From: an uncultured Hyphomicrobiales bacterium
GTDB taxonomy: Bacteria; Pseudomonadota; Alphaproteobacteria; Reyranellales; JAQSWP01
Assembly: GCA_964388115.1 (NCBI GenBank)
Contig: CAYLYK010000002.1
Span: forward strand, 47,255-111,254
Length of the DNA: 64,000 nucleotides
Reading direction: 5' to 3'
Made by a program: the position numbers and the translations under genes. The notes under the pieces are model-generated. The model had not been told where the DNA came from and did not search any database. It worked only from the letters and a program-made list of their open reading frames with translations. Positions 20,660 through 51,008 of this stretch are shown piece after piece. Each line of letters opens with the position of its first letter. The stretch's first letter is position 1.

Positions 20660-20714
20660 GTCTTCAATCTCCCTGTCGCTCCGATGGAATTTGCTTGCGG
20701 TCGTGGCCCGGAGC

Positions 20715-21530: not shown

Positions 21531-21556
21531 GCCCGTTCCCGTCGCGCTTCTTCTAT

Positions 21557-21574
21557 TGGTATATTCATATAACA
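21557..21574. promoter_or_regulatory. Candidate GntR/HutC operator
   Basis: TGGTATAT-TC-ATATAACA, a 7/8 inverted repeat about 27 bp upstream of the GntR start. Confidence 0.5.
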
Positions 21575-21833
21575 TTTACGCTCCTGTCGAGCCAAAATTG
21601 CGTTGGCGCCGAGCACGACGGCGCCCGCTGCGCGACCGGGAAAAGAACCGAACGATGCCTGCGGCACAGTCGCCACGATGGGAGGGATTCAGGTCAACCC
21701 GTTCCAAAACCGGTCGAATGGGCGGTCCCTTGCCGAAGGGCGAAACGGCGCAGGCGCTCGCCGCAACCATCCCGATCGCTCACCCGAGGCGGACGCAAGG
21801 CAACTCGGACCATAAGGAACAGGGTGACCCGAT

Positions 21834-24070: not shown

Positions 24071-24074
24071 CGCA

Positions 24075-24758: not shown

Positions 24759-26278
24759 CGTTCGATCTCCACTGGCGTGCGGGCCTTGCGCTTGGTCGAG
24801 AACAGATTGGTGTCGGTGGCGCCATCGGAACAGCCATTGCCGAAGCTGAAGCCGCAGCCGCCGCGCAAGTCGAAGGTATTCTCGGCGTACTCACGATGCG
24901 TGGTGGGAATGACGTAGCGATCCTCGTAGTTGGCGATCGCCATATAGCGATACATCTCCTCCACCTTGGCGCGATCAAGCCCCACTCGATGGAGCACCGC
25001 CTCGTCGTCGCGGCCTTCGACATGACGGCCGCGCATGAAGGCGCGCATCGCCAGCAGCCGTTCCAACCCCCGCACCACCGGCGCCTCGTCGCCTGCCGTC
25101 AGCAGGTTGGCGAGATAGCGCACCGGAATGCGCAGCGAGCGCACGTCGGGCAGATCGCCGGACATCGCGATCTTGCCGCCATCCGCGGCCGCCTGGATCG
25201 GCGACAACGGCGGCACGTACCAAACCATCGGCAAGGTGCGATACTCGGGATGCAGCGGGAAAGCCACCTGCCATTCGATGGCCATCTTGTAGGCGGGCGA
25301 ACGCTGCGCCGCCTGCAGCCAAGCCTCGGGCACGCCGTCGCAGCGCGCCTGCTCGAGCACGGCCGGGTCATTGGGGTTGAGGAAGACCGAGAGCTGCGCG
25401 GGATACAGCTCCTTCTCGTCGGCGACGCTGGCGGCTTCTTCGATGCGGTCGGCATCGTAGAGCAGCACGCCCAGATAGCGGATGCGGCCGACGCAGGTTT
25501 CCGAGCACACGGTCGGCTCGCCGGCCTCGATGCGCGGATAGCAGAAGATGCACTTCTCGGCCTTGCCGCTCTGCCAATTGTAATAGATCTTCTTGTAGGG
25601 GCAGGCGCTGACGCACATGCGCCAGCCACGGCACTTGTCCTGATCGATCAGGACGATGCCGTCTTCCTCGCGCTTGTAGATCGAGCCCGAGGGGCAGGAT
25701 GCGACGCAACTGGGATTGAGGCAGTGCTCGCACAAACGCGGCAGGTAGAACATGAAGGTGTTCTCGAATTGCCCGTAGATCTCCTTCTGTACGCCCTCGA
25801 AATTCGCATCGCGCGAGCGCTTGGCGAACTCGGTGCCGAGAATCTCCTCCCAGTTGGGGCCCCATTCGATCTTCTTCATGCGCTGGCCGGTGATCAGCGA
25901 CACGGGCCGCGCCACCGGCATGGCCTGCGACTCCGGCGCGGTCTGCAAATGCTCGTAATCGAAGGTGAAGGGCTCGTAGTAGTCGTCGATCTCGGGCAGG
26001 TCGGGATTGGCGAATATCTTGGACAGGATGCGCCACTTGCCGCCCATGCGCGGCTGGATCTTGCCGTTCTTCAGACGCACCCACCCGCCTTTCCAGCGAT
26101 TCTGGTTCTCCCAATCCTTGGGATAGCCGATGCCGGGCTTGGTCTCGACATTGTTGAACCAGGCGTATTCCACGCCCTCGCGCGAGGTCCACACGTTCTT
26201 GCAGGTAACCGAACAGGTATGGCAGCCGATGCACTTGTCGAGGTTGAGAACCATCGCGATCTGAGCGCGGACTTTCAT
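24755..26278 (-). CDS. narH: Respiratory nitrate reductase beta subunit
   Basis: MKVRAQIAMVLNLDKCIGCHTCSVTCKNVW plus further Fe-S Cys clusters. Confidence 0.98.
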   Translation of the reverse strand: MKVRAQIAMVLNLDKCIGCHTCSVTCKNVWTSREGVEYAWFNNVETKPGIGYPKDWENQNRWKGGWVRLKNGKIQPRMGGKWRILSKIFANPDLPEIDDYYEPFTFDYEHLQTAPESQAMPVARPVSLITGQRMKKIEWGPNWEEILGTEFAKRSRDANFEGVQKEIYGQFENTFMFYLPRLCEHCLNPSCVASCPSGSIYKREEDGIVLIDQDKCRGWRMCVSACPYKKIYYNWQSGKAEKCIFCYPRIEAGEPTVCSETCVGRIRYLGVLLYDADRIEEAASVADEKELYPAQLSVFLNPNDPAVLEQARCDGVPEAWLQAAQRSPAYKMAIEWQVAFPLHPEYRTLPMVWYVPPLSPIQAAADGGKIAMSGDLPDVRSLRIPVRYLANLLTAGDEAPVVRGLERLLAMRAFMRGRHVEGRDDEAVLHRVGLDRAKVEEMYRYMAIANYEDRYVIPTTHREYAENTFDLRGGCGFSFGNGCSDGATDTNLFSTKRKARTPVEIER

Positions 26279-26289
26279 GGCACTGCTCC

Positions 26290-29200: not shown

Positions 29201-30030
29201 TTGGCGCCCTTGTAGCGCACCTCGGTCATGAAATGGGCGTCAGGCGTGCGCGTCTGCGGCACGTTCGAGCCCCACATCATGATGAAGGTGGAGTTGTACC
29301 AGTCGGCGCTCTCGGGCACGTCGGTCTGCTCGCCCCAGGTTTGCGGCGAGGACGGCGGCAGATCGCAGTACCAATCGTAGAAGCTCATGCAGACGCCGCC
29401 GATCAGCGACAGGTAACGCGAGCCTGCGGCATAGGACACCATCGACATGGCGGGAATCGGCGAAAAGCCGATGATGCGATCGGGGCCGTGGCGCTTGGCG
29501 GTATAGACGTTGGCAGCGGCGATCAGCTCGTTGGCTTCATTCCAGTCGACGCGAACGAAGCCGCCCAATCCGCGCACCTTTTTGTAGCTGCCGGCCTTGT
29601 GCGCATCCTCGACGATCGAGGCCCAGGCGGCGACGGGGTCGGCATGCTGCGCGCGTGCCGCGCGCCACAGCTCGACCAGGCGGCGGCGCATCATCGGGTG
29701 CTTCACCCGATTGGCGCTATAGAGATACCAGGAGTAGCTGGCGCCGCGCGAACAGCCGCGCGGCTCGTGATTGGGCAGATCGGGTCGGGTGCGCGGATAG
29801 TCGGTCTGCTGCGTCTCCCAGGTCACGATGCCGCCCTTGACGTAGATCTTCCAGGAGCACGAGCCGGTGCAGTTGGTTCCATGAGTCGACCGCACGATGC
29901 GGTCGTGCGCCCAGCGGCTGCGATAGGCGTCTTCCCAGCGACGGTCCTCGTTGGTAACGACACCGTGGTCGCCGGCGAACGTGTCGACGTTCTTGCGGAA
30001 GAACATCAGTCGATCGAGAAAATGGCTCAT
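26290..30030 (-). CDS. narG: Respiratory nitrate reductase alpha subunit
   Basis: MSHFLDRLMFF start, STHGTNCTGSCSW, DWYCDLPP and TPHQKWGIHSTY motifs; 1246 aa from the ATG at 30030. Confidence 0.98.
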   Translation of the reverse strand: MSHFLDRLMFFRKNVDTFAGDHGVVTNEDRRWEDAYRSRWAHDRIVRSTHGTNCTGSCSWKIYVKGGIVTWETQQTDYPRTRPDLPNHEPRGCSRGASYSWYLYSANRVKHPMMRRRLVELWRAARAQHADPVAAWASIVEDAHKAGSYKKVRGLGGFVRVDWNEANELIAAANVYTAKRHGPDRIIGFSPIPAMSMVSYAAGSRYLSLIGGVCMSFYDWYCDLPPSSPQTWGEQTDVPESADWYNSTFIMMWGSNVPQTRTPDAHFMTEVRYKGAKIVTVTPDYSEASKFGDIWLAPKQGTDAALAMAMGHVILKEFHLARKSAYFEDYCRRYTDMPFLVKLVRKGDSYVADRLLRASDFADGLGQSNNADWKTVALDSSGKPVAPTGSIGFRWGESGKWNLESRDGASGAEIKPHLSLEDVCDEVLGVGFPYFGARQHAHFQHSDHADVLVRNVPVKTLQLKDGEAKVATVFDLLCANYGIDRGLGGGNVAASFDDDIPYTPAWQERITGVPREQVIAVARAFADNADKTKGRSMVILGAAVNHWYHADMNYRSIINMLVMCGCIGQPGGGWSHYVGQEKLRPQTGWTPVAFALDWHRPPRHMNSTSFFYAHSDQWRYEKLAVEDILSPTSPVQLSGSLIDLNARAERMGWLPSAPQLEQNPLGIAAQAAAAGMEAPAYVAQQLKSGGLRLSCFDPDNPANFPRNMFVWRSNLLGSSGKGHEYFLKHLLGTQHGVQGKDLGAEGGARPQDVAWREQAPEGKLDLLVTLDFRMSTTCMYSDIVLPTATWYEKHDLNTSDMHPFIHPLSAAVDPAWQSRSDWEIFKGIAAKFSEVCVGHLGVEKDVVLVPILHDTPGELAQPFAPRDWGKGECDPIPGKTMPAVAVVERDYPNTWRKFTALGPLMAKIGNGGKGIAWNTEHEVDFLRKLNRASDDAGVAKGLPRIETDIDAAEVILALAPETNGEVAVKAWAALSKITGRDHTHLALPRQDDKIRFRDLQSQPRKIISSPTWSGIESEHVTYNAGWTNVHELIPWRTLTGRQQLYQDHQWMLAFGEGLCLYRPPIDTKTVAPLLGQRSNGEKELVLNFITPHQKWGIHSTYTDNLLMLTLSRGGPIVWLSEIDAKAAGIEDNDWIEAFNINGALVARAVVSQRVPKGMVMMYHAQEKIVNTPGSEITHARGGIHNSVTRTCPKPTHMIGGYAQQSYGFNYHGTIGTNRDEFVIVRKMKNVDWLDGPLVAPPRQAAE

Positions 30031-30053
30031 CTTTACTGCTCCTTGATCGCTGC

Positions 30054-32795
30054 TCAGGCGGCCGGCTGCAGCGCGGTGCGACTGCGTTCGATGGCGTGCA
30101 GAATTCCACCCCGCCTTGTGTAGACCCACCAGGTGATGGCGATGCAGCTCAGGTAGAAGACGAAGAAGCCCCACAACGCCATTTCCGGACTGCCGGTGGC
30201 GGCAATCGAGCTGCCGTAGCTCTTGGGGATGAAGAAGGCGCCGTAGGCTGCGATTGCCGAGGTGAAGCCTATGATCGCTGCCGATTCCTTCTCGGCCTGT
30301 TTCCGCCTCTGCTCGGCATCGACTCCAGGCATCAGCCGGTCCATCTCGCTGCGCATGATCGCGGGGATCATCTGAAAGGTGGACGCGTTGCCCACGCCGC
30401 TGGCGAAGAACAGCAGCACGAACATGGCGAAGAAGCCATAGAAGTCGCGGGCGTTGAGGAAATAGACGACGCCTGCCACGCCCACCGCCATGGCCACGAA
30501 CACCCAGAACGTCACGCGTCCGCCGCCCCAGCGGTCCGACAGCCATCCTGTCATGGAGCGGGAGAGCGCGCCGACCAGCGGCCCGATAAACGCCAGCTGC
30601 AAGGCGTCCACCTCCGGGAATTGCGTTCGCGCCAGCAGGGGGAAGCCCGCCGAATAGCCGATGAAGGAACCGAAGGTGCCGGTGTAGAGCCAGCACATGA
30701 TCCAGTTGTGCCGGCGGGTGAAGATCACCGATTGTTCGGCGAAGGATGCCTTGGCCGTCGCCAGATCGTTCATGCCGAACCAGGCGGCGAAGGCGGCGAC
30801 GACGATGAAAGGCACCCAGATGAAGCCGGCATTCTGCAGCCACAGCGGCGCCTGCCCGGCGCCGGCCTTGACCATGACGGGATCGCCACCCAGCGCACCG
30901 AATACGCCGGCGGTAATGACCAGCGGCACCACGAACTGCACGACGCTGACGCCCAGATTGCCGAGCCCGGCATTAAGAGCCAGGGCATTGCCCTTCTCCG
31001 AGCGCGGGAAGAAGAAGGAAATGTTCGACATCGAGGAGGCGAAGTTGCCGCCGCCGAAGCCGCACAGCAGCGCCAAGAGCAGGAAAAGCCAATACGGTGT
31101 CGTCGGATCCTGCACGGCGAAACCGATGCCGAGTGCCGGTATCGCCAGCGACCAGGTCGCAAGCGTGGTCCACAGCCGCCCGCCGAAGATCGGCACCACG
31201 AAGGAATAGAAGATGCGCAAAGTGGCGCCCGACAGGCCTGGCAGCGCCGCCAGCCAGAAGAGCTGATCTGTGCTGTAGGTGAAGCCGATCAGCGGCAGCT
31301 TAGCGACCACCACCGACCACACCATCCACACGGCGAAGGACAGCAGCAGGGCGGGAATCGAAAGCAGCAGATTGCGGCGCGCGATCTTCCGTCCCGTCTC
31401 GTTCCAGAATTTGGCATCGTCGGGGCGCCAGTCGGCAATCAGCTTGCCCGACAGCGCGCCGGCATGCTCGGGCCCGTGAATCGGCTGCATTTCCGGCAAT
31501 TGCGGCAGCTTGTCGAGCGCCGTGCCGACGGCGGCTCTCTCCATCGCCCGGATCGAGAAATGCATCCAAGCGAGCGAGGCGACCGCGATCAGGAACAACA
31601 GCATGAAACAGCTGGTCCACACGCCCGTGAGATCGTTCATGACGCCAAAGGCGATCGGCAGCACGAAGCCACCCAGGCCGCCGACCAGGCCAACAATGCC
31701 GCCTACAGCGCCGACATGCTTTGGATAGTAGACCGGGATGTGCTTGTAGACGGCGGCCTTGCCCAGGCTCATGAAGAAGCCCAGCACGAAGGTGAGGACG
31801 GTGAAGGCCACCAGCCCGATCTCGATGCGGAAGCTGATTGGCCCCTTGATGCCGGTGACGAGATATTGAGTCGGCGGATAGGACAGCAGAAAGCAGACGG
31901 CTACGGCCACGCCAAAGGTCCAGTACATCACCCGTCGCGCGCCATACTTGTCCGAGAGATGACCGCCATAGACGCGGAAGATGCTGGCCGGCACCGAATA
32001 GGCGGCCCCGATCATGCCGGCGACGGCGATGTCCACGCCATAGGCGCCAATGAGATAGCGCGGCAGCCACAGTGCCAGAGCGACGAAACCGCCGAAGACG
32101 AAGAAATAATAGAGGGCGAAACGCCAGACCTGCAGATTGCGCAGCGGCTCCAGCATGGCGCTGAGGCTTTCCGGCTTGGCGCCGGAGCGACGGCGGGCCT
32201 CGAGCTGCGGATCGTCCTTGGTGCCGAACCAGAATATGGCGGCGGTCAACACCAGCGCAGCGGCCCAGATATTGGCCACCATCTGCCAGCCGAACGCCAC
32301 CATGACGAAGGGGGCTATGAACTTCGTCACGGCCGCGCCGACATTGCCGGCGCCGAATATGCCGAGTGCCGTGCCCTGCTTGCCGGCGGGATACCAGCGC
32401 GAGACATAGGCGATGCCAACGGCGAAAGAGCCACCTGCCACGCCTACCCCGAGCGCCGCCAGCAGGAACATCTCGTAGCTCTGGGCGAAAGTCAGCAGCC
32501 AGGTGGCCAGCGCCGAGGCCAGCATCACCGGCACGAACATCAGCCTGCCGCCGTACTGGTCAGTCCAGACACCCAGCACCAGGCGCACCAGCGAGCCGGT
32601 CAGAATCGGCGTGCCGACCAGAAGACCGAACTGCGTATCGTTAAGCCCGAGCTGCTGCTTGATCTGTATGCCGATGATGGAAAAGATCGTCCATACCGCA
32701 AAGCACACGGTGAAGGCGAAAGTAGAGAACCACAGCGCACGCTGCGCATTGCCTCTTTCCCGGTCCCCGCCCACTTGCGCATCGGCTAAGCTCAT
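30054..32795 (-). CDS. narK: Fused NarK1-NarK2 nitrate/nitrite transporter
   Basis: 913 aa with two tandem nitrate-porter MFS domains (GAGNVGAA; GGGNFASSM...GLGNLG), directly upstream of narG. Confidence 0.95.
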   Translation of the reverse strand: MSLADAQVGGDRERGNAQRALWFSTFAFTVCFAVWTIFSIIGIQIKQQLGLNDTQFGLLVGTPILTGSLVRLVLGVWTDQYGGRLMFVPVMLASALATWLLTFAQSYEMFLLAALGVGVAGGSFAVGIAYVSRWYPAGKQGTALGIFGAGNVGAAVTKFIAPFVMVAFGWQMVANIWAAALVLTAAIFWFGTKDDPQLEARRRSGAKPESLSAMLEPLRNLQVWRFALYYFFVFGGFVALALWLPRYLIGAYGVDIAVAGMIGAAYSVPASIFRVYGGHLSDKYGARRVMYWTFGVAVAVCFLLSYPPTQYLVTGIKGPISFRIEIGLVAFTVLTFVLGFFMSLGKAAVYKHIPVYYPKHVGAVGGIVGLVGGLGGFVLPIAFGVMNDLTGVWTSCFMLLFLIAVASLAWMHFSIRAMERAAVGTALDKLPQLPEMQPIHGPEHAGALSGKLIADWRPDDAKFWNETGRKIARRNLLLSIPALLLSFAVWMVWSVVVAKLPLIGFTYSTDQLFWLAALPGLSGATLRIFYSFVVPIFGGRLWTTLATWSLAIPALGIGFAVQDPTTPYWLFLLLALLCGFGGGNFASSMSNISFFFPRSEKGNALALNAGLGNLGVSVVQFVVPLVITAGVFGALGGDPVMVKAGAGQAPLWLQNAGFIWVPFIVVAAFAAWFGMNDLATAKASFAEQSVIFTRRHNWIMCWLYTGTFGSFIGYSAGFPLLARTQFPEVDALQLAFIGPLVGALSRSMTGWLSDRWGGGRVTFWVFVAMAVGVAGVVYFLNARDFYGFFAMFVLLFFASGVGNASTFQMIPAIMRSEMDRLMPGVDAEQRRKQAEKESAAIIGFTSAIAAYGAFFIPKSYGSSIAATGSPEMALWGFFVFYLSCIAITWWVYTRRGGILHAIERSRTALQPAA

Positions 32796-36931: not shown

Positions 36932-37186
36932 ATGAAGTCCAACACTGTGATTATCTCGGCGTTTGCCGCCGCCATGGCGCTGACCGCGGTCGGCCAGGTG
37001 GCTGCCCAACAGCAGCCGGCCAACGGCGAGAAGTGCTACGGCGTGGTGAAGGCCGGGCTGAACGATTGCCAGACGGCAACCTCGTCCTGCGCCGGCACCT
37101 CGACCCGCGACCGCCAGGCCGATGCCTGGATCTACGTCCCGGCCGGCACGTGCAAGAAGATCGCCGGCGGCGTCGTCAAGTCCTGA
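36932..37186 (+). CDS. DUF2282 / BufA1-type bufferin RiPP precursor
   Basis: Signal peptide, EKCYGVVKAGLNDC...SCAG...W.YVPAGTCKKIAGG with four Cys. CAGGAG RBS. Confidence 0.92.
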   Translation: MKSNTVIISAFAAAMALTAVGQVAAQQQPANGEKCYGVVKAGLNDCQTATSSCAGTSTRDRQADAWIYVPAGTCKKIAGGVVKS

Positions 37187-37203
37187 GGCCAGTCGGTCAA
37201 CCA

Positions 37204-37237
37204 GCCCTCGCCCGGCCTGCATGGCTGGGGCGAGGGC
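37204..37237 (+). other. Stem-loop between precursor and MNIO genes (mRNA stabiliser/attenuator)
   Basis: 10-bp stem GCCCTCGCCC / GGGCGAGGGC plus an imperfect inner stem. Confidence 0.5.
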
Positions 37238-37257
37238 GATCAGGCGAGGGCATCTCC

Positions 37258-38118
37258 ATGTTCGACACAGCACCATCGACATCGCTTGCCAGCACGGCCG
37301 GCATCGGCCTGCGCAGCCCGCATATGGGCGAAGTCATGCAGCGCCAGCCGAAGATCGGCTGGCTGGAAGTGCACACGGAGAATTTTCTGCACGGCGGCGA
37401 AGCGCGCCGCTCGCTTGAGACTATTCGCCAGTCCTATCCCGTCTCGCTGCACGGCGTCGGCCTGTCGCTGGGCAGCGCCGGCGGACTCGATCTTTCCCAT
37501 CTGCGGCGCGTCAAGCAGCTGGTCGACGAACTGCAGCCCCTGCTGGTCTCCGACCACCTGTCGTGGAGCGCCTGCGAGGGCGTGTTTCTCAACGATCTGC
37601 TGCCGCTGCCTTATGTCAGCGAAAGCCTTGAGGTGATGAAGGCCAATATCTTCCGCGCCCAGGATGCGCTCTGCCGGCCGCTGCTGATCGAGAATCCCTC
37701 CGCCTATCTGAGATTCGACCGGGCCGACATGAGCGAGGCGCAGTTCCTTGGCGAGCTGGCGCGCAGCACCGGCTGCGGCATCCTGCTCGATCTCAACAAT
37801 CTCTTCGTCTCCGCCACCAATCTCGGCTTCGATGCGCTGGCCTATCTCGACGAGCTGCCGGCTGGCGCCATCGGCGAGTTCCATGTCGCCGGCCATCACC
37901 GCGCCGTCACCGACGAAGGCGTGGTTCTGATCGACGATCACGGCTCTTCGGTGGGCTGCGACGTCTGGCATCTCTACGGCGCGGCGGTGCGCCGCTTCGG
38001 ACCGCAACCCACTCTCATCGAACGCGACAGCAATCTGCCGGCGCTGGACGAACTTATCGCCGAGGCCGCACTGGCGCAGAAAATCAGCAGCCGCAACTTG
38101 AAGGCCCGCGCCCAATGA
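37258..38118 (+). CDS. DUF692 multinuclear non-haem iron oxidase (MNIO, BufB-like)
   Basis: GIGLR, EVHTENF, SLHGVGLSLGS, SDHLSWS, NDLLPLP, LIENPS, LLDLNN, EFHVAGH, IDDH and IERD motifs. Confidence 0.93.
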   Translation: MFDTAPSTSLASTAGIGLRSPHMGEVMQRQPKIGWLEVHTENFLHGGEARRSLETIRQSYPVSLHGVGLSLGSAGGLDLSHLRRVKQLVDELQPLLVSDHLSWSACEGVFLNDLLPLPYVSESLEVMKANIFRAQDALCRPLLIENPSAYLRFDRADMSEAQFLGELARSTGCGILLDLNNLFVSATNLGFDALAYLDELPAGAIGEFHVAGHHRAVTDEGVVLIDDHGSSVGCDVWHLYGAAVRRFGPQPTLIERDSNLPALDELIAEAALAQKISSRNLKARAQ

Positions 38119-38894
38119 GCACCCTCCATCACCTGCAGCAGGCGCTCTGTGCTGCGCTGCTGAACCAACAGGCCGATACTGCCGCCGTGCCGTTGCTCGA
38201 CAACGGCGCGCAGCGGCGGCTGGCGATCTATCGCAACAACATCGTCGCCAGCCTGAGCGATGCTCTGGCCAAGACGTTTCCCGTCGTCTGCCGGCTGGTG
38301 GATCGCCGCTACTTCGACCATGCGGCGACCGCCTTTATCCGCATCTCGCCGCCCAGTGAGCCGCGACTGTCGCATTACGGCGCCGGCTTCGCCGATTTCC
38401 TGACGCGATTCTGTCCGTCATTGCCCTACCTGGCCGATGTCGCCCGTCTGGAATGGCTGGTCAACGAGATCGTCCACGAGAGCCGGCTGCCGTCCATCAC
38501 CCTGGCGCAAGCCAGTCTCGGCGCCCGCTCGGGCGATATCTTCCTGCGGCTGCAGCCTTCGATTCGCCTGTTCGAATCCACGTGGCCGGCGCTGGAGATC
38601 TGGCAGGCGAATCAGCCGGAAATCGCCGATCCGCCGGCGCTCGACATCGTCGAGGGCGAGGAAACGCTGCTGATCCATCGTCGGCGCGATCAGATCGTGT
38701 TCACCCGCATCGACGCTGCGACGGCGGCTTTCATCGCGCTGCTGCGCCAGAACGCCAGCCTGAAGGACGCCGCCGTCTCCGCCCTCGGTCTCGACCCTCT
38801 GTTCGATCTCGCCAAGGCGCTGGCGCTGCTGTTCTCCGGCGAGCTGGTGGTCGACCAGACGCATGCCACGCCATTTACCGCAACCGTCCAATAG
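38115..38894 (+). CDS. DUF2063 MNIO partner protein (BufC/HvfC-like)
   Basis: RLAIYRNN...L..TFPVVCRLV, YGAGFADFL and YLADVARLEW motifs. ATGA overlap. Confidence 0.9.
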   Translation: MSTLHHLQQALCAALLNQQADTAAVPLLDNGAQRRLAIYRNNIVASLSDALAKTFPVVCRLVDRRYFDHAATAFIRISPPSEPRLSHYGAGFADFLTRFCPSLPYLADVARLEWLVNEIVHESRLPSITLAQASLGARSGDIFLRLQPSIRLFESTWPALEIWQANQPEIADPPALDIVEGEETLLIHRRRDQIVFTRIDAATAAFIALLRQNASLKDAAVSALGLDPLFDLAKALALLFSGELVVDQTHATPFTATVQ

Positions 38895-42892: not shown

Positions 42893-43864
42893 ATGACCTC
42901 CACAACCAAAGTCGCCGTCGTCCAGGCAGCCTCCGTCGCCTTCGATCTCGGGCGCTGCCTGAAGAAGACCGCCGATCTCGCCGCCGATGCCGCACGCAAG
43001 GGCGCGAAGATCGTGGTGTTCCCCGAAGCCTTTCTGTCGGGTTATCCCAAAGGCTCCAGTTTCGGCGCCGTAGTCGGCGCCCGAACCGATGCCGGTCGCG
43101 AGGAATATCGACTTTACTGGGAGAGCGCCGTCGACGTGCCCGGTCCCGGCGTCGAACGCCTGTCGCGCATCGCGCGCGAGAACGCGATCTATCTGGTCAT
43201 CGGCGTCATCGAGCGCGATCGCGGCACACTCTATTGCACGGTGCTGCATTTCGCGCCGGACGGCAGTTTCCTCGGCAAGCATCGCAAGCTGATGCCGACC
43301 GCGGCCGAGCGGTTGATCTGGGGCTTCGGCGACGGCTCGACCCTGCCGGTCTACGACACGCCGCATGGCGTTCTGGGGTCGGTGATCTGCTGGGAAAACT
43401 ACATGCCGCTGCTGCGCACGGCGATGTACGCCAAGGGCATCGAGATCTGGTGCGCGCCAACCGCTGATGGCCGCGACAGCTGGATTCCGTCCATGCAGCA
43501 CATCGCCTTCGAGGGGCGCTGCTTTGTGCTGTCATGCAACCAGTTCTCGCGCCGCTCCGATTTCCCGGCCGATTTCCCCTGCAGCCTGGGCGACGATCCT
43601 GCAACCATCATCTCGCGCGGCGGCTCCTGCATCGTCGATCCGTTCGGCGCGATCCTTGCCGGCCCGCACTACGAGGGCGAAACCATCCTCACGGCCGAGA
43701 TCGACCGCGGCCAGATCGCGCGCGGCAAATACGATTTCGACGTGGTCGGCCACTATGCGCGACCCGACGTGTTCCAACTCACCGTCGACGAGCGGCCGAA
43801 ATCGCCGGTCGTGACCTTGCGCAATGCCGTGGGGCCCGAGCGACTGGCAGGCGAGGAGACCTAG
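42893..43864 (+). CDS. Nitrilase (carbon-nitrogen hydrolase branch 1)
   Basis: FPEAF, HRKLMPT and ICWENYMP give the E-K-C triad; FDVVGHYARPDVF. Confidence 0.92.
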   Translation: MTSTTKVAVVQAASVAFDLGRCLKKTADLAADAARKGAKIVVFPEAFLSGYPKGSSFGAVVGARTDAGREEYRLYWESAVDVPGPGVERLSRIARENAIYLVIGVIERDRGTLYCTVLHFAPDGSFLGKHRKLMPTAAERLIWGFGDGSTLPVYDTPHGVLGSVICWENYMPLLRTAMYAKGIEIWCAPTADGRDSWIPSMQHIAFEGRCFVLSCNQFSRRSDFPADFPCSLGDDPATIISRGGSCIVDPFGAILAGPHYEGETILTAEIDRGQIARGKYDFDVVGHYARPDVFQLTVDERPKSPVVTLRNAVGPERLAGEET

Positions 43865-44445
43865 TCGGCAGCGACGCCGAGCGCCTTTCTGAAGCGCTCG
43901 CGCAAGATGACGCCATCCTTGGGCGGCAGCACCAGCGGCAATTCCTCGAATTGCACCTTGGCGACGCAGAACAGCGGGCCCTTGTCGCTGCGCAATCGCT
44001 GCAAGGCCGGCTCGACATCGTTGGACCTGGTCAGCGTCCAGCTTTGTGCAATTCCGGCCGCGCGCGCCATGGCGGCAAGATCGGTGCCTCTTGCCGTGTT
44101 GGTCTGCTGACCGCCCGTCTCGCCATAGGTTTCGTTGTCCAGCACCAGCACGCCGAGATTGTTCGGCGCCATGGCGGCGATGGTGGTCAGTGCGGTCAAG
44201 CCCATCAGCATTTCGCCATCGCCCGTCACCACCAGGATGCGCCTTGTCGGTTGCGCCAGCGCGATGCCCAGCCCCACAGACACCGCGCCGCCCATCGCGC
44301 CCCAAAGCGGAAAGTTCAGATCGCGGTCGCCGGCAGCGGTGATGTCCCAGGCAGATGAACCAAGCCCCGCGACCACGACGAGGTCGGGAGCGTCGCGCAA
44401 GAGCGCGGTAACCAAAGGTCGACGGTGTAGCATGAGATCGTTCAT
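43861..44445 (-). CDS. TPP-binding C-terminal subunit of sulfopyruvate/phosphonopyruvate decarboxylase family (ComE-like)
   Basis: WGAMGGAVSVGLGIALAQP, and TGDGEMLM...DNETYGETGGQ TPP motif. Confidence 0.85.
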   Translation of the reverse strand: MNDLMLHRRPLVTALLRDAPDLVVVAGLGSSAWDITAAGDRDLNFPLWGAMGGAVSVGLGIALAQPTRRILVVTGDGEMLMGLTALTTIAAMAPNNLGVLVLDNETYGETGGQQTNTARGTDLAAMARAAGIAQSWTLTRSNDVEPALQRLRSDKGPLFCVAKVQFEELPLVLPPKDGVILRERFRKALGVAAD

Positions 44446-44830: not shown

Positions 44831-45985
44831 ATGACCAAAGCAGAGAAGGGCAGCAAGAAGTCCGGCGCAACCAATGCCGGCCGTCGTCGTTTCCTGGGCG
44901 TTGCCGGTCTTGCCGCCGGCGCCGGCGTCGCGACGCTGGCAATGCCCAACGTGTCGCGCGCCCAGACAGTGGCGCTAAAGATGCAAGGCTCGTGGGGCGC
45001 CAAGGACGTCTTCAACGAGATGGCCCTGGATTACGTCCAGCGCGTCAACGATCTGGGCGGCGGCCGCCTGAAGATCGACTACCTGGTCGGCGGCGCGGTG
45101 GTGCATCCCTTCCAGGTGCTGGACGGCGTGCATGGCGGGCAGATCGACGCCGCCCACACCGTCACCGTCTACTGGTATGGCAAGCACAAGGCGGCATCGC
45201 TGTTCGGCACCGGTCCGGTGTTTGGCTTCAACGCCAACGAGGGCCTGGGCTGGATTCACAACGGCGGCGGCAAGGAGCTGTTCGAAGAGCTGCAGACGCA
45301 GATCATGAAGATCGACGTCAAAAGCTTCTTCGCCATGCCAATGCCGACCCAGCCGCTGGGCTGGTTCAAGAAGCCGGTCAACTCGATGGCCGACATGAAG
45401 GGCCTCAAGTACCGCACCGTCGGCCTGGCGGCCGATCTGATGCAGGCGATGGGTCTGGCGGTCGCCCAGCTTCCCGGCGGCGAAATCGTGCCGGCCATGG
45501 AACGCGGCGTGATCGACGCCTTCGAGTTCAACAACCCGACCTCGGATCGCCGCTTCGGCGCCCAGGACGTGGCCAAGAACTACATGATGGGCAGCCACCA
45601 CCAGGCCACCGAATATTTCGAGATCATGTTCAACCGTACCAAGTTCAACGGTCTCGCCAAGGAGCAGCAGGCCATTCTGCAGACTTGTGCCGAGGCAGTG
45701 TCTTCCGCCAACGAGTGGAAGGCGATGGACTACTACTCGAAGGACCTTGCCGAGTTGGTCGAGAAAGACAAGGTCAACGTCATCCGCACACCCAAGGATG
45801 TGTTCGACGCCCAGATCAAGGCGTGGGACGGACTGATCGCCGATCTCGCCAAGGATCCGTTCATGAAAAAGGTGATGGATTCGCAAAAGGCCTGGGCGCG
45901 GCGCGTGGTTTACTACGGCATGAACAACGCCACCGACTATCGCGGCGCGTTCAACCACCACTTCCCCAACGTGCTCAAGGGCTAG
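44831..45985 (+). CDS. TRAP solute-binding protein DctP (TakP/alpha-keto acid family), Tat signal
   Basis: GRRRFLG leader; YWYGK, GWFKKP, GLKYR, GGEIVPAMERGVIDAFEF motifs. Confidence 0.9.
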   Translation: MTKAEKGSKKSGATNAGRRRFLGVAGLAAGAGVATLAMPNVSRAQTVALKMQGSWGAKDVFNEMALDYVQRVNDLGGGRLKIDYLVGGAVVHPFQVLDGVHGGQIDAAHTVTVYWYGKHKAASLFGTGPVFGFNANEGLGWIHNGGGKELFEELQTQIMKIDVKSFFAMPMPTQPLGWFKKPVNSMADMKGLKYRTVGLAADLMQAMGLAVAQLPGGEIVPAMERGVIDAFEFNNPTSDRRFGAQDVAKNYMMGSHHQATEYFEIMFNRTKFNGLAKEQQAILQTCAEAVSSANEWKAMDYYSKDLAELVEKDKVNVIRTPKDVFDAQIKAWDGLIADLAKDPFMKKVMDSQKAWARRVVYYGMNNATDYRGAFNHHFPNVLKG

Positions 45986-46084: not shown

Positions 46085-46696
46085 ATGACCAAATTTCTCT
46101 ATTTCATCGATTCGATCAGCACCTGGGTGGGCAAAGCTTTCGCCTGGATGATCATGGTCCTGTGCCTGGCCGTTACCTATGAGGTCATGGTGCGCTACCT
46201 GTTCCGCTCTCCCACCACATGGGCCTTCGACATCAGCTACATCAGCTACGGCGCTTTGTTCCTGATGGCCGGCTCCTATGCGCTCGTGCGCAACGGCCAT
46301 GTGCGCGCCGACGTGTTCTACCGCTTCTGGCGGCCGCGCACGCAGGCGACGATGGACCTGATCCTGTACATCATCTTCTTCCTGCCCGGCGTTTCGGCGC
46401 TGATCTATTCCGGCTGGACATATGCCGCGCGCTCGGTGCGCTTCAATGAAGTCTCCATCTTCAGTCCCGCTGGCATTCCCATCTATCCGCTGAAGGTGCT
46501 GATCCCGCTGACCGGCTTCTTCCTGCTGCTGCAAGGCATGGCGGAGATCATACGCTGCGTTATCTGCATTCGCACGGGAGACTGGCCGCAACGGCTGCAT
46601 GACGTGGAGGAAACCGAAAGCATCATTCTGCGGGAACAGGAACTTCACAAGGACGCTCCGGAGATGCATGCCAGCGGGAAAGGAGCCGGCCAATGA
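46085..46696 (+). CDS. TRAP small permease DctQ
   Basis: YEVMVRYLFRSPTTWAFD, NGHVRADVFY and four TM segments. Confidence 0.9.
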   Translation: MTKFLYFIDSISTWVGKAFAWMIMVLCLAVTYEVMVRYLFRSPTTWAFDISYISYGALFLMAGSYALVRNGHVRADVFYRFWRPRTQATMDLILYIIFFLPGVSALIYSGWTYAARSVRFNEVSIFSPAGIPIYPLKVLIPLTGFFLLLQGMAEIIRCVICIRTGDWPQRLHDVEETESIILREQELHKDAPEMHASGKGAGQ

Positions 46697-48039
46697 GCGA
46701 TCCCGCAGTCGGCATGCTGATGCTGGGGTTGTTCCTCTTCGTCATCATGCTGGGTTTTCCGATCGCCTTCTCGCTGATCGCGATGGGTGTCGGTTTCGGC
46801 TTCTATGCGTATTACACGCCCGGCCAGGCCATATTCGAAAATCGCGTCTTCACCCTGCTGGTGCAGAAAGCCTTCGAGGTGTCGTCCAGCGACACGCTGG
46901 TGGCTGTGCCCCTCTTCCTCTTCATGGGCTATCTGGTCGAACGCGCCAGTATTCTCGATCGACTGTTCCATTCGCTGCAAATCTCCATGAAGAACGTCCC
47001 GGGCTCGCTGGCCGTGGCGACCTTGGCGACCTGCGCCATGTTCGCCACTGCCACCGGCATCGTCGGCGCAGTCGTCACCTTGATGGGGCTGCTGGCGTTT
47101 CCCGCCATGTTGCGTGCGGGCTACGACGTGAAGCTGTCGGCCGGCGTGGTCTGTGCCGGCGGCTGCCTGGGCATTCTCATCCCTCCCAGCGTGCTGCTGA
47201 TCGTCTATGCCGCCACGGCTGGCGTCTCGGCGGTCAAGCTCTACGCCGCAGCCTTCATCCCGGGTCTGATGCTGGCGTGCTTCTACATCGTCTACGTTAT
47301 CGTCCGCGCCATGCTCAATCCGTCTTTGGCGCCGAAGCTGCCGCCGGAACAGACCGACGTTCCGATCGGTGAAGTCATCAAGGCATTGGCGACCTCGTTC
47401 CTGCCGCTGGCGCTACTGATCGTCTCAGTGCTGGGCGCCATTCTGTTCGGCCTCGCCACGCCCTCGGAAGCGGCCGCTGCCGGCGCCTTCGCATCCATCC
47501 TGCTGGCAGCAGCTTACCGGGCACTGAACTTCCAGATGCTGAAGGAATCGGTCTACCTCACCGCGCGCGCCTCGGCGATGGTGTGTTGGCTGTTCATCGG
47601 CTCGTGGACCTTCTCGTCGGTATTCGCGCTCCTGGGCGGCCAGAAGCTGATCGAAGATTTCTTCATCGGTCTCGACCTGTCGCCGGTCGCATTCCTGCTG
47701 CTGACCCAACTCCTGATCTTCCTGCTCGGCTGGCCGCTGGAATGGACGGAGATCATCGTCATTTTCGTGCCGATCTTCCTGCCGCTGCTCGACGATTTCC
47801 ACATCGATCCGATCTTCTTCGGCATACTGGTGGCGCTGAACACACAGACCGCATTCAATACGCCGCCGGTGGCGATGGCGGCCTTTTACCTGAAAGGCGT
47901 GGCGCCGCCTTGGGTGAAGCTCTCCGACATCTTCAGCGGGTCGCTGCCCTTCGTGGGCATGGTGTTCCTGACCATGCTGCTGGTCTATGTCTTCCCCGAC
48001 CTGGCGCTTTGGCTGCCGCGATATCTCTATAGCAACTGA
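46693..48039 (+). CDS. TRAP large permease DctM
   Basis: VPLFLFMG, ATGIVGA, GCLGILIPPS and NTPPVA motifs; highly hydrophobic. Confidence 0.92.
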   Translation: MSDPAVGMLMLGLFLFVIMLGFPIAFSLIAMGVGFGFYAYYTPGQAIFENRVFTLLVQKAFEVSSSDTLVAVPLFLFMGYLVERASILDRLFHSLQISMKNVPGSLAVATLATCAMFATATGIVGAVVTLMGLLAFPAMLRAGYDVKLSAGVVCAGGCLGILIPPSVLLIVYAATAGVSAVKLYAAAFIPGLMLACFYIVYVIVRAMLNPSLAPKLPPEQTDVPIGEVIKALATSFLPLALLIVSVLGAILFGLATPSEAAAAGAFASILLAAAYRALNFQMLKESVYLTARASAMVCWLFIGSWTFSSVFALLGGQKLIEDFFIGLDLSPVAFLLLTQLLIFLLGWPLEWTEIIVIFVPIFLPLLDDFHIDPIFFGILVALNTQTAFNTPPVAMAAFYLKGVAPPWVKLSDIFSGSLPFVGMVFLTMLLVYVFPDLALWLPRYLYSN

Positions 48040-48041
48040 CC

Positions 48042-49403
48042 ATGGCGGCGCATGAGTTGTCGCTGGCGCAGGCGGCGCTGGAGGTCAGGGAAGGCAGGCT
48101 GAGCGCGGTGGAACTGGCGCAGGCCTGCCTCGAGCGGGTCGCCGCAGTCGACGCCGAGGTTCAGGCCTGGACCTTTCTCGACCCGCAGCACGTGCTTGCC
48201 CAGGCCGAACGCGCCGACGACTGGCGGCGTCACGGCAAGCCGCTGGCACCGCTGCACGGCGTACCCGTCGGCATCAAGGATATCTTCGATACATCCGACA
48301 TGCCGACCGAGTTCGGCTCGCCGATCCATGCCGGACGCACCCCGCGACGCGATGCGGCCTGCGTCGCCCGGCTGCGGGCGGCGGGTGCGGTGATCATGGG
48401 CAAGACGGTGACGACCGAATTCGCCTATTTCCACCCCGGCAAGACGCGCAATCCGCACGACCCCGAACGCACGCCCGGCGGCTCGTCCAGCGGCTCCGCC
48501 GCAGCCGTCGCCGCCGCCATGGTGCCGGGCGCGATCGGCAGCCAGACCAACGGCTCGGTCATCCGCCCCGCTTCCTTCTGCGGCGTGGTCGGCTTCAAGC
48601 CAAGCCATGGGTTGATCCCGCGCAGCGGCGCACTTTTGCTGAGCCGGGCGCTGGATCATGTCGGCGTCTTTGGCCGCACCATCGAGGATGCGGCGCTGCT
48701 GGCGCAATGCATGGCGGGCTACGACGAGGGCGATGCCGACACCCGCATGATCGCAGCCCCGCCGCTGCTCGAGATCGCCCGACAGGAGCCGCCATTGCCG
48801 CCGCGCTTCGCCCTCGTGAAGACGGCGGTGTGGGACCAGGCCGACGCCGATACAAAGACGGCGTTTGCCGCGTTGCTGGAGCGACTGGGCGAGATCGCCG
48901 AGGAAGTGGACCTTGCCGCCTCGACCGCTCCCGCGCATGAGCTGCACGCCATTCTCATGCAGGTGGAAATGGCGGAGAATCTGCGGCCCGAGTTGACGCG
49001 CGCGCGTGAGAAGCTCTCGGCGCCGCTGCTGGAGCTGCTAGATAACGGGCGCGCGCGCCTGGCGGTCGACTACCGGCGAGCTTTGGACCTGGCCGCACCG
49101 ATGGCCGAACAGGTCGAGACGGTATTCGACGAATTCGATGCCATCATCACCCCCGCCGCGATCGGCGAGGCTCCCATAGGCCTGCAGGCGACTGGCAGCC
49201 CCGTTTTCTGCACCATCTGGAGCTATCTCGGCATGCCGGCAATCACCTTGCCGCTGCTGCAGGGCAGCAACGGCCTGCCGATCGGCGTGCAGCTTGTCGG
49301 CAAACGGGGCAACGACGCGCGCCTGTTGCGCACTGCGCGCTGGCTGGTGCAACATCTCAATCCGCGCGGCCGCAAAGGCGCCGCCAAGGGGAAGAAGCGA
49401 TGA
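48042..49403 (+). CDS. Amidase signature family enzyme
   Basis: GIKDIFDT, GKTVTTEFA, PGGSSSGSAAAV and GSQTNGSVIRPASFCG motifs. Confidence 0.92.
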   Translation: MAAHELSLAQAALEVREGRLSAVELAQACLERVAAVDAEVQAWTFLDPQHVLAQAERADDWRRHGKPLAPLHGVPVGIKDIFDTSDMPTEFGSPIHAGRTPRRDAACVARLRAAGAVIMGKTVTTEFAYFHPGKTRNPHDPERTPGGSSSGSAAAVAAAMVPGAIGSQTNGSVIRPASFCGVVGFKPSHGLIPRSGALLLSRALDHVGVFGRTIEDAALLAQCMAGYDEGDADTRMIAAPPLLEIARQEPPLPPRFALVKTAVWDQADADTKTAFAALLERLGEIAEEVDLAASTAPAHELHAILMQVEMAENLRPELTRAREKLSAPLLELLDNGRARLAVDYRRALDLAAPMAEQVETVFDEFDAIITPAAIGEAPIGLQATGSPVFCTIWSYLGMPAITLPLLQGSNGLPIGVQLVGKRGNDARLLRTARWLVQHLNPRGRKGAAKGKKR

Positions 49404-49576
49404 CCAACCTTCTGCTTCCGGGCCTGCTGGGAATTGCGATCCTGGTGACTTTCCTGGCCGTCATGCTGGGCAAGATCCTGGCTATTCCGCTGATCGTCAT
49501 CGCGGTCGTCGTCATCGCCATGCTGCTTTACGATTTCTATCTCGAGATCAAGGCCGCGCGCAGCGGCGGCAAATAG
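49400..49576 (+). CDS. 58-aa small membrane protein (below the ORF-track cutoff)
   Basis: MTNLLLPGLLGIAILVTFLAVMLGKILAIPLIVIAVVVIAMLLYDFYLEIKAARSGGK. ATGA-coupled to the amidase; two hydrophobic helices; fills the gap to the convergent gene. Confidence 0.75.
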   Translation: MTNLLLPGLLGIAILVTFLAVMLGKILAIPLIVIAVVVIAMLLYDFYLEIKAARSGGK

Positions 49577-49578: not shown

Positions 49579-50097
49579 CTACTTCGCGAAGCTTTTCGAT
49601 CCGATCAGACGCTGCCCCAGCAGCAGCGCCACCGCATTCGGCCCCTCAAAGGCAAGGCGCGCCGCCGACTCTACTGACGCCGCCACGTCTTCCGCCTTGT
49701 CCACGCGCTGCACGATGACGCCCACCGCCTTCAGCGTCTCTTCCGTCGCCTGCCCCATCGAAACCTGCCACGGATTGAACTCGCCCCATTCGCCGCGCAT
49801 GGTGATCAGCATCAGCAGCGGCAGGCGGCAGATGCGCGGCAGGCCCAGCATGTTGATGCAATTGCCGACGCCGGAGGACTGCATCAGCAGCGTCCCGCGC
49901 AAGCCGCCCAGCGAGCCGCCGGCCAGCAGCGCCACGCCGTCCTCTTCCGTCGCCAGCGGCGCGACACGCATGTCATTGTCGGCCTGGCACATCTCGATCA
50001 GCCGCTTGTGGCCGGCATCGGGCACATGCGCCACCAGGCCCACATTCCAGCGCTTCAACGCCGCGAAGAGATCGTTTGGCCAGGCAGCATCGCTCAT
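49579..50097 (-). CDS. TPP-dependent decarboxylase N-terminal subunit (ComD-like)
   Basis: HVPDAGH, TEEDGVALLAG, LMQSSGVGNCIN and TMRGEWGEFNPWQV motifs. ATGA overlap with the upstream dehydrogenase. Confidence 0.85.
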   Translation of the reverse strand: MSDAAWPNDLFAALKRWNVGLVAHVPDAGHKRLIEMCQADNDMRVAPLATEEDGVALLAGGSLGGLRGTLLMQSSGVGNCINMLGLPRICRLPLLMLITMRGEWGEFNPWQVSMGQATEETLKAVGVIVQRVDKAEDVAASVESAARLAFEGPNAVALLLGQRLIGSKSFAK

Positions 50098-51008
50098 TTG
50101 ACGCGCACCTTGGCAACACCCGCCTGCTCGCAGGCGAGATCGAGCAAGGCCGAGAAATCGCGCCCGCCGTAGTCGCCGCTCTTCTTGGCCAGCGACAGCG
50201 CCTCGCGCGCCGCCGCCCCCATGAAGGCCGGCACGCCGAAATCCGATGCCGCCTGCATCGCCAGCGCCAGGTCCTTGTGCGCGAGCGCAATGCGGAAGCC
50301 AGGCGCCGTGTCGCCCGACAGCACCTTGATCGGCCACATGATCTTCAGATGCCCGTTGGTCGCGGTGGTGCCGTTGACGACGTCGAGCGTGGTCCTGGGA
50401 TCGAGCCCGAAAGCCTGCGCCAGCGCCATCGCTTCGGCCGATAGCTGGCAGGTGGCAATCGCGAGGAAGTTGTTTACAAGCTTGGTGCGGATGCCAGCGC
50501 CTGGCGCGCCGCAATGATGGATGGTGGTGCCCATGGCTTCCAGCACGCCGCGCACGCGGCCCAGATCGTTGTCGCGCGCGCCGACCATGAACAGGCTCTC
50601 GCCTTTCTCCGCCTGCGTCACCGTGCGGCCGACCGGCGCATCGACGAAGCCCAGCCCGCGATCGCGCAACGCCGCCGCCAGCCTGTCGGTCGCCGCCGGA
50701 TCGATGGTGCTCATGTCGACCACCAGCGTGTCACGCCGCGCATGGTCGGCAATGCCGCCCTTGCCCAGCACGACTTCGTCGACGTCAGGCGAATTGGGCA
50801 GCATGGTGAAAATGATGTCGCACTCGCGCGCCAGGTCCGCGAGCGACGCCGCGGCGCGAGCGCCGGCCTGGATCAGCGGCGCCATCGCCTCAGTTCGCAC
50901 GTCGAACACCGTCAGATCGTGCCCCTTGGCCGCGATGTTGCGCGCCATGGGCCGCCCCATCGCGCCCAAACCGACGAAGCCGATCTTTTCCTTACCGCCT
51001 GCAGTCAT
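50094..51008 (-). CDS. Beta-hydroxyacid dehydrogenase, YihU/sulfolactaldehyde reductase-like
   Basis: GFVGLGAMG, DAPVGRTxxxAxxG (instead of the usual DAPVSGG), GIRTKLVNN and WPIKVLSGD...LAHKDL, closely recalling E. coli YihU. Confidence 0.8.
   Translation of the reverse strand: MTAGGKEKIGFVGLGAMGRPMARNIAAKGHDLTVFDVRTEAMAPLIQAGARAAASLADLARECDIIFTMLPNSPDVDEVVLGKGGIADHARRDTLVVDMSTIDPAATDRLAAALRDRGLGFVDAPVGRTVTQAEKGESLFMVGARDNDLGRVRGVLEAMGTTIHHCGAPGAGIRTKLVNNFLAIATCQLSAEAMALAQAFGLDPRTTLDVVNGTTATNGHLKIMWPIKVLSGDTAPGFRIALAHKDLALAMQAASDFGVPAFMGAAAREALSLAKKSGDYGGRDFSALLDLACEQAGVAKVRVK

Follow-up and report, generated by a model that had tools for sequence, protein, structure and literature searches.

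What pathway, if any, is served by a YihU-like dehydrogenase whose gene runs into that of a ComD-like decarboxylase subunit is the question raised by a 64,000-nucleotide stretch from an uncultured Hyphomicrobiales bacterium (contig CAYLYK010000002.1, positions 47,255 to 111,254; the whole stretch is called the window below). A first-pass annotation of this DNA had proposed a C3-sulfonate route. In this study, we provide evidence that the enzyme pair is real, conserved and uncharacterised, and that the functional coupling of this dehydrogenase clade with a decarboxylase is real. The sulfonate assignment rests on naming after the nearest characterised relative and is disfavoured, and we lean, with little more than even confidence, towards a module in which a 2-oxoacid decarboxylase and an aldehyde/hydroxyacid oxidoreductase catabolise a small imported keto acid or amide.

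The YihU-like dehydrogenase and its loop

The dehydrogenase gene (50094-51008, minus strand) encodes a 304-aa oxidoreductase of the nicotinamide adenine dinucleotide (NAD) type acting on beta/gamma-hydroxyacids and aldehydes, with Pfam NAD_binding_2 and NAD_binding_11 domains. Its top PDB match is Escherichia coli YihU (6sm7, E 2.2e-71), which aligns end to end and is 44.3% identical over 296 aa, and its top NCBIfam model is NF012005, sulfolactaldehyde 3-reductase, at 304.5 bits, thus missing the equivalog cut-off of 348. The Rossmann GxGxxG is present, as are the catalytic Lys and the Asn-Asn pair (K176 and N179-N180, aligned with YihU K171 and N174-N175). In beta-hydroxyacid dehydrogenases an Asp after the first Rossmann strand is a mark of NAD and not of NADP, and because Asp36 stands in 'VFDV' at this place, as it does in YihU, the sequence indicates NAD as the cofactor rather than NADP.

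At the position where generic family members of the sample have DAPVSGG, the window dehydrogenase carries DAPVGRTVTQAEKG (50601-50642, minus strand); this substitution, pointed out in the first-pass annotation, was confirmed by translation and by a motif table of 96 homologues from fetched loci, and Arg128 of the loop corresponds to YihU Arg123 in the alignment to YihU. Alignment of the 96 homologues showed that a superclade including YihU is marked by a loop with Gly-Arg where others have Ser-Gly-Gly, and in 100/100 bootstrap trees the minimal clade uniting YihU with the window clade consisted of Arg-loop sequences only. Since the feature is common to this whole 'GR' superclade, the GRT motif is, judged by the alignment, the homologous loop, and a chance match is excluded. 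The window dehydrogenase itself lies outside the YihU branch, in a large sister clade at 50-70% identity from Alpha- and Betaproteobacteria, Acidobacteriota, Gemmatimonadota and Verrucomicrobiota, many members of which bear the JGI label '4-hydroxybutyrate dehydrogenase/sulfolactaldehyde 3-reductase'. The consensus loop of the sister clade is GRL, GRT being kept only in the Reyranella group and in one other sequence. A secondary gain of GRT inside the GRL clade was considered and rejected, as the tree puts the group with GRT and Ala183 in basal position, and GRT is probably the ancestral state of the superclade.

The G-R-T loop had also been taken to form the sulfonate pocket of YihU, and this holds only in part. 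According to PMC8006165, the pocket is composed of the Asn174 and Ser178 side chains and the backbone NH of Arg123, thus the loop contributes a backbone NH only. Arg128 and Asn179 are present in the window dehydrogenase, but the counterpart of Ser178 is Ala183, which leaves the YihU pocket set incomplete; Ala occupies this position in all of a 27-sequence clade alignment, and YihU Asn182 is replaced by Cys. Since the pocket Asn is general to the family and Ser178 corresponds to Ala183, the side chain that distinguishes the YihU pocket is missing. In short, the window dehydrogenase resembles YihU (PDB 6SM7/6SMY/6SMZ, an NADH-dependent 3-sulfolactaldehyde reductase) and DhpA in fold, length, GRT loop and superclade, but differs from them in its score below the family cut-off, in these two replacements, in its position outside any sulfoglycolysis or SlaB/SuyAB cluster, and in belonging to a clade that mostly carries GRL. 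When E. coli YihV, YihU, YihS, YihR, YihQ and CsqR were searched by tblastn, only YihU matched the 64-kb window, which agrees with the earlier statement that no yih sulfoglycolysis genes are present there, and no sulfoglycolysis (yihS/T/V/Q, sqv) or SlaB/SuyAB genes were found in the related loci.

A split decarboxylase and its linkage to the dehydrogenase

The partner of the dehydrogenase is a split thiamine-diphosphate 2-oxoacid decarboxylase, whose pyrimidine-binding, ComD-like alpha subunit (172 aa; 49579-50097, minus strand) and diphosphate-binding, ComE-like beta subunit (194 aa; 43861-44445, minus strand; identified by Pfam TPP_enzyme_C and translation) are encoded apart from each other, the beta gene lying outside the coordinates given in the first-pass annotation. 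The dehydrogenase stop and the alpha start share an ATGA at 50094-50097 (minus strand, 'gtc aaA TGA gcg'), an overlap already claimed in the first-pass annotation and read off the sequence again here, and this 4-base overlap implies co-transcription of the two genes. The top family of the alpha subunit is TIGR03845, sulfopyruvate decarboxylase alpha (112.9 bits, under the cut-off of 147.95), and the beta subunit reaches 132 bits on TIGR03846, under its cut-off of 221.5, the top NCBIfam model of beta being the 'hypothetical protein' model PRK06163 (141.5 bits). The phosphonopyruvate decarboxylase model TIGR03297 gave 62.4 and 102.1 bits for the two subunits against a cut-off of 312.5. An intact cofactor motif, GDG-x26-LDN, is found in beta, and alpha carries a Glu-containing ATEEDG segment, the presumed site of the activating Glu.

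Only distant solved relatives were found for the subunits, namely RhiEF (E 1e-8 to 1e-14) and 9u8r, alpha matching RhiE (9iz3_A) weakly and beta having RhiF (9iz3_B, E 4e-14) as its only solved named relative. PMC12141560 describes RhiEF as a two-subunit phosphonopyruvate decarboxylase of Bacillus subtilis (PDB 9IZ3). Both RhiEF and ComDE of Methanocaldococcus jannaschii resemble the window enzyme in that pyrimidine and diphosphate are bound by two different subunits, each of about 170-195 aa; however, the window subunit genes lie 5 kb apart, their scores fall well under the ComD, ComE and phosphonopyruvate-decarboxylase cut-offs, and the contexts of the window family are those of carboxylic-acid and coenzyme A (CoA)-ester catabolism, not of coenzyme M, Xsc or phosphoenolpyruvate (PEP) mutase. 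More than 8000 homologues of the alpha subunit (a lower bound) were counted, most at about 60% identity, which go by 'sulfopyruvate decarboxylase alpha subunit' at JGI and, for some, by 'phosphonopyruvate decarboxylase' at NCBI, and a literature search for a characterised member of either the dehydrogenase or the decarboxylase subfamily turned up only ComDE and RhiEF. By its profile matches, the alpha/beta enzyme is a member of the ComDE/phosphonopyruvate-decarboxylase superfamily and belongs to a very large uncharacterised subfamily of it. Among Reyranella-like genomes, the ratio of nonsynonymous to synonymous substitution rates (dN/dS) of the decarboxylase subunits was 0.16-0.22 (alpha 0.21, beta 0.16-0.20); the separated genes are thus not decaying, both being under purifying selection. 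The dehydrogenase gave a dN/dS of 0.12 against the related locus L008.

Whether the pairing extends beyond this organism was judged from 40 loci of the dehydrogenase clade in GTDB at >=44% identity (all counts from this sample being among the matches listed), with gene content mapped by tblastn of a labelled protein set and complemented by annotated plasmid records. Split alpha/beta genes lie within 3 kb of the dehydrogenase in five of the 40 loci (L019, L022, L025, L032 and L034), against about 0.1 expected by chance in our own estimate, which assumes that a genome has a few loci of this kind. Gene order varies among the linked loci: dehydrogenase-alpha-beta in Bosea sp. Leaf344, alpha-beta-dehydrogenase in Microvirga and a Dongiaceae bin, divergent orientation of dehydrogenase and split decarboxylase in Methylobacterium nonmethylotrophicum, and a LysR regulator beside binding protein-alpha-beta-aldehyde dehydrogenase-dehydrogenase in Achromobacter sp. 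RTa. The linkage was also found on two plasmids, of Paracoccus yeei and Methylobacterium currus, and dehydrogenase-linked alpha subunits occupy at least three separate places in the alpha-subunit tree. It is this recurrence, in at least three alpha lineages and in varied gene orders, that establishes the coupling, and the claim of a dehydrogenase coupled to a ComD-like gene thus holds well outside the window, in Bosea, Methylobacterium, Microvirga, Dongiaceae, Achromobacter and Paracoccus.

In four other loci (L020, L030, L037 and L042), which come from Acidobacteriota, Gemmatimonadaceae and Vicinamibacterales, the clade dehydrogenase stands beside a non-homologous, full-length thiamine enzyme, whose top models are acetolactate-synthase-like and all under their cut-offs, with no Xsc among the 25 models listed; two aldehyde dehydrogenases, an acyl-CoA dehydrogenase and a CaiB-type CoA-transferase are also present. 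The full-length enzyme looks like a non-orthologous replacement of the split decarboxylase, and since the clade dehydrogenase adjoins either one or the other, this suggests a pathway requiring a 2-oxoacid decarboxylation that either enzyme type could supply. An aldehyde dehydrogenase adjoins the dehydrogenase in 12 of the 40 loci, and these neighbours are most similar to dehydrogenases of 2-oxoglutarate semialdehyde and succinate semialdehyde, while remaining under the 2-oxoglutarate-semialdehyde dehydrogenase cut-offs. Such clusters of decarboxylase, aldehyde dehydrogenase and alcohol/aldehyde oxidoreductase, in some loci with a 2-hydroxyacid oxidase/dehydrogenase (L034, L091 and L093), are reminiscent of mandelate- or Ehrlich-type pathways, but here a split, ComDE-type decarboxylase is joined with a YihU-type oxidoreductase, thus the likeness is one of working and not of family.

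The loci seeded with the alpha subunit, from Roseomonas, Sphingobium, Shinella, Deinococcus, Variovorax, Bradyrhizobium and metagenome contigs, carry aldehyde dehydrogenases, MmgE/PrpD-family proteins, CaiB/BaiF CoA-transferases, acyl-CoA dehydrogenases, MaoC dehydratases, CoA-ester lyases, PxpA-type lactamase subunits, and M20 and other amidohydrolases, together with amino-acid dehydrogenase, alpha-hydroxyacid oxidase, LysR regulators and carboxylate/amino-acid transporters. The neighbourhoods of the family are those of carboxylic-acid and amide catabolism. Neither the scanned open reading frames (ORFs) of the window nor about 30 annotated or Pfam-labelled related loci yielded any recognised desulfonation or sulfite-handling gene (Xsc, SuyAB, CuyA or a sulfite exporter) or any sulfolactaldehyde or sulfolactate dehydrogenase, and a SlcD/ComC, Xsc, Pta or coenzyme M context was absent from the scanned window ORFs and from 17 distinct alpha/beta loci. 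Phosphonate genes were likewise absent from the related loci.

The island between the subunits and the rest of the window

About 5 kb of opposite-strand genes, comprising a transporter, an amidase and a small ORF, separates alpha from beta. The transporter is a tripartite ATP-independent periplasmic (TRAP) system with a solute-binding protein DctP (44831-45985, plus strand; Pfam DctP), putatively of the TakP alpha-keto-acid type and bearing a signal like that of the twin-arginine pathway, a small permease DctQ (46085-46696, plus strand; Pfam DctQ) and a large permease DctM (46693-48039, plus strand; Pfam DctM, and 278.5 bits on TIGR00786, over the cut-off). The best PDB matches of DctP, at 130-145 bits and moderate identity, are the alpha-keto-acid receptors 4pet, 4yzz, 7ug8 ('ketoacid-binding protein') and 2hzk, TakP. 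The sodium-pyruvate site of TakP consists of Tyr100, Gln156, a salt bridge to Arg177, Glu214, the backbone of Trp215, and Glu240 (PMC1839085). Tyr100, Gln156, Arg177 and Glu214 are kept in DctP, Trp215 is replaced by Phe at what is a backbone contact only, and Glu240 is replaced by Gln, which makes five of the six positions kept if the backbone contact is counted. TakP of Rhodobacter sphaeroides (2HZK/2HZL) is among its nearest solved relatives.

Downstream of DctM lies a 453-aa amidase-signature amidase (48042-49403, plus strand; Pfam Amidase), whose closest solved relative, with a lead of twenty orders of magnitude in E-value, is malonamidase E2 (E 4e-67, about 230 bits). The likeness to the Bradyrhizobium japonicum enzyme (1OBJ and others), at moderate identity, extends to the GS-VIRPA segment common to both, in which lies malonamidase E2 Arg158, binder of the substrate carboxylate. 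The amidase stop overlaps, again as ATGA, with a 58-aa hydrophobic two-helix ORF (MTNLLLPGLLGIAILVTFLAVMLGK...; 49400-49576, plus strand) that extends to the alpha stop. L001, L002, L008 and L010 each have a called gene at this site; the ORF is poorly conserved (48-76% identity, dN/dS 0.5-0.9) and may either encode a membrane peptide accessory to the TRAP system or be open by chance. The decarboxylase subunits, dehydrogenase, transporter and amidase together gave dN/dS of 0.07-0.28 among Reyranella-like genomes, in keeping with purifying selection. On the far side of beta, a NIT4-like nitrilase (42893-43864, plus strand; Pfam CN_hydrolase; plant NIT4 6i00, E 8.7e-122) converges on the beta gene with a 4-base overlap at the beta 3' end, and is present in L010, with unrelated genes in its stead in L008. 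Plant NIT4 is a beta-cyanoalanine nitrilase/hydratase.

The dehydrogenase/alpha pair with the same neighbours was found on two independent metagenome contigs, and the nested transporter-amidase arrangement is repeated in L008, L009 and L010. In L006, a 71%-identical relative, alpha and beta overlap directly beside the same MAPEG gene, without transporter or dehydrogenase, and in L010 the transporter and amidase are present and the dehydrogenase is not. Because of these two states, it seems that a transporter-amidase cassette was inserted into the alpha-beta operon and parted its two genes, with the dehydrogenase gained later upstream of alpha. No operator common to the beta/DctP intergenic region and the dehydrogenase upstream region was found when shared 10-14-mers were sought with mismatches allowed, and a search for RNA runs containing the locus, as a check of co-transcription, returned it only from DNA metagenomes (bioreactor, wastewater and soil).

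A Syntrophobacterales bin (L077) was considered as further support for the pairing and set aside, its two dehydrogenases being tartronate-semialdehyde-reductase-like and outside the YihU clade. At 2581-11399 of that locus, TRAP genes 52-67% identical to those of the window share one operon with a 45%-identical amidase, a D-2-hydroxyacid dehydrogenase, a DRL/SAF oxidoreductase and the two tartronate-semialdehyde-reductase-like dehydrogenases, therefore hydroxyacid dehydrogenases accompany the transporter-amidase module in a distant phylum too.

The window as a whole has a GC content of about 64%, and its proteins find their closest matches in metagenome bins of Reyranellaceae and other Alphaproteobacteria. 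A second catabolic cluster (7561-21575, minus strand) encodes a GntR regulator, a Liv-type binding protein, ATP-binding cassette (ABC) transporter genes, aconitase-type large and small subunits (LeuD/DmdB family), a methylisocitrate-lyase-like protein of the PEP-mutase superfamily, a caprolactamase-like hydantoinase A/B, an isochorismatase-family hydrolase and a flavocytochrome-c-like flavin adenine dinucleotide (FAD) protein, and recalls lactam or dimethylmalate-type acid degradation. A narGHJI-like respiratory nitrate reductase cluster, judged by ORF lengths (about 1518, 508, 228 and 239 aa), order and N-terminal sequences, occupies 23354-30843. Finally, at 37033-38894, an enzyme of the MbnB/TglH/ChrH family, which modifies ribosomally synthesised and post-translationally modified peptides, is followed by a DUF2063 protein, a pairing usually seen in loci that modify methanobactin-like or related peptides.

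Substrate class and rival explanations

In the module that we prefer, of decarboxylase and oxidoreductase acting on an imported keto acid or amide, the TakP-type importer would take up a small 2-oxo (or 2-hydroxy) carboxylic acid with a further amide or acid group, the amidase would take off the amide nitrogen, and the alpha/beta enzyme would strip the C1 carboxyl from the 2-oxoacid to leave an aldehyde. The YihU-like enzyme would then interconvert this aldehyde and the matching primary alcohol, as is typical chemistry of its family, or, less likely, would act one step earlier by oxidising a hydroxyacid (malate, 2-hydroxysuccinamate or sulfolactate) to the 2-oxoacid; in relatives, the adjacent aldehyde dehydrogenase would convert the aldehyde to an acid. 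The best chemical fits would be 3-substituted pyruvates or 2-oxo-dicarboxylates rather than sulfopyruvate. Since ComDE and phosphonopyruvate decarboxylase act on X-CH2-CO-COOH, oxaloacetate and 2-oxosuccinamate are the candidate natural analogues with a carboxylate or amide group, 2-oxoglutarate and 2-oxoglutaramate coming next. A more specific and rather improbable form is an undescribed route for carbon derived from asparagine or beta-cyanoalanine, in which the TakP-type transporter would import a 3-carbamoyl- or 3-carboxy-pyruvate (2-oxosuccinamate or oxaloacetate), the split enzyme would decarboxylate it to malonamate or malonate semialdehyde, the YihU-like enzyme would provide the redox step, and the amidase would free ammonia. 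Pantothenate catabolism (amide, pantoate 4-dehydrogenase, aldehyde dehydrogenase and 2-oxoisovalerate decarboxylation) was also considered; the enzyme classes would suit it, but a gene of the dimethylmalate-dehydrogenase type was not seen, nor was literature found that ties genes to this pathway, and it is kept as speculation.

Several observations weigh against a decarboxylase-oxidoreductase module for a keto acid or amide. The GTDB sample was pattern-seeded, about 80% of the clade members adjoin no thiamine enzyme, and the closest homologues outside Reyranella are in uninformative contexts. The dehydrogenase is a dispensable add-on, missing from the otherwise syntenic L010 and L006, and the island itself has neither an aldehyde dehydrogenase nor a regulator. 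A few related loci hold genes suggestive of sulfur chemistry, namely two of the TauD family (L004/L005) and one that is cysteine-dioxygenase-like (L097). Among characterised proteins, those nearest to the dehydrogenase and to alpha are sulfonate or phosphonate enzymes, and the proposed substrate class would rest on context and distant homology, neither subfamily being characterised.

The C3-sulfonate route, as first proposed, has the YihU homologue oxidise 2,3-dihydroxypropane-1-sulfonate (DHPS) to sulfolactaldehyde, or sulfolactate to sulfopyruvate, with the ComDE-like enzyme yielding sulfoacetaldehyde. It takes its appeal from YihU as the closest characterised relative of the dehydrogenase and ComD/ComE as the closest named families of alpha and beta, from the TauD-family and cysteine-dioxygenase-like neighbours, and from sulfopyruvate being itself an alpha-keto acid compatible with a TakP-type receptor. 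An oxidatively running YihU homologue, as the route has it, is not new, with a precedent in DhpA of Desulfovibrio sp. DF1, which acts with SlaB (PMC9594981), and the dehydrogenase/aldehyde-dehydrogenase pairs in 12 of the 40 loci recall DhpA-SlaB, but a role in DHPS or sulfolactate turnover here is unsupported. All three proteins fall short of their equivalog cut-offs, Ala replaces Ser178 across the clade, and no Xsc, SuyAB, CuyA or sulfite exporter accompanies them in the scanned window ORFs or the roughly 30 labelled loci. From DHPS, sulfopyruvate is reached through a sulfolactaldehyde dehydrogenase and a sulfolactate dehydrogenase, and neither of these is in the island or the loci just named. 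In addition, the amidase and nitrilase have no role in this route, and the PrpD-family, CaiB-type CoA-transferase, acyl-CoA dehydrogenase, MaoC and CoA-ester lyase partners could not use C2 sulfonate products, while the neighbours that are present point to keto acids and amides. We therefore consider the C3-sulfonate route unlikely. Still weaker is the phosphonate analogue that had been named as its main alternative, with alpha/beta as a phosphonopyruvate decarboxylase and a dehydrogenase reducing phosphonoacetaldehyde or oxidising phosphonolactate. The NCBI names of some homologues and RhiF as the only solved relative of beta speak for it, but the TIGR03297 scores (62 and 102 bits against 312.5), the lack of a PEP mutase in the window and the lack of phosphonate genes in related loci make it very improbable. 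The only ORF of the PEP-mutase superfamily in the window, at 13365-14267, was examined as a possible phosphonate link and rejected, being methylisocitrate-lyase-like (284.7 on the PrpB model, 111 on the PEP mutase model against a cut-off of 319.55).

A different assignment keeps the keto-acid chemistry and makes alpha/beta a 2-oxoglutarate decarboxylase, whose substrate would arise when imported 2-oxoglutaramate is deamidated, with the dehydrogenase as a succinic-semialdehyde reductase/4-hydroxybutyrate dehydrogenase. The JGI names, the semialdehyde-dehydrogenase affinities of the adjacent aldehyde dehydrogenases, and the combination of an alpha-keto-acid-type receptor with an omega-amide-type amidase in the island are all consistent with it, and YihU was reportedly first described with succinic semialdehyde reductase activity. 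This assignment is, however, purely inferential, ComDE and phosphonopyruvate decarboxylase use C3 skeletons, the CoA-transferases, acyl-CoA dehydrogenases and hydratases that occur as partners in related loci suggest acids that are branched or longer, and the island lacks a succinate-semialdehyde dehydrogenase, thus we hold it to be doubtful. It might also be that the dehydrogenase merely landed upstream of alpha and that the two enzymes serve separate pathways, as its absence from the syntenic L010 and L006 and the many clade members adjoining no thiamine enzyme would allow; the independent recurrence in at least three alpha lineages, the excess of linked loci over the estimated chance level (5 against about 0.1 in 40) and the 4-base overlap with its implied co-transcription render such an accident quite improbable.

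The sulfonate-enzyme labels that public resources give to both proteins are probably wrong, and since these labels attach to a very large family, surveys of organosulfonate cycling that count them would overcount it. The clustering of dehydrogenase, decarboxylase and aldehyde dehydrogenase marks a widespread, uncharacterised catabolic module in Alphaproteobacteria, Betaproteobacteria, Acidobacteriota and Gemmatimonadota; should its substrate be a sulfonate after all, it would constitute a new and widespread route for DHPS or sulfolactate. If, on the other hand, the asparagine/beta-cyanoalanine route is true, it would show that both families are systematically mis-annotated as sulfonate enzymes, and would provide a first function for more than 8000 soil-bacterial proteins annotated as 'sulfopyruvate decarboxylase' and for the sister clade of YihU.

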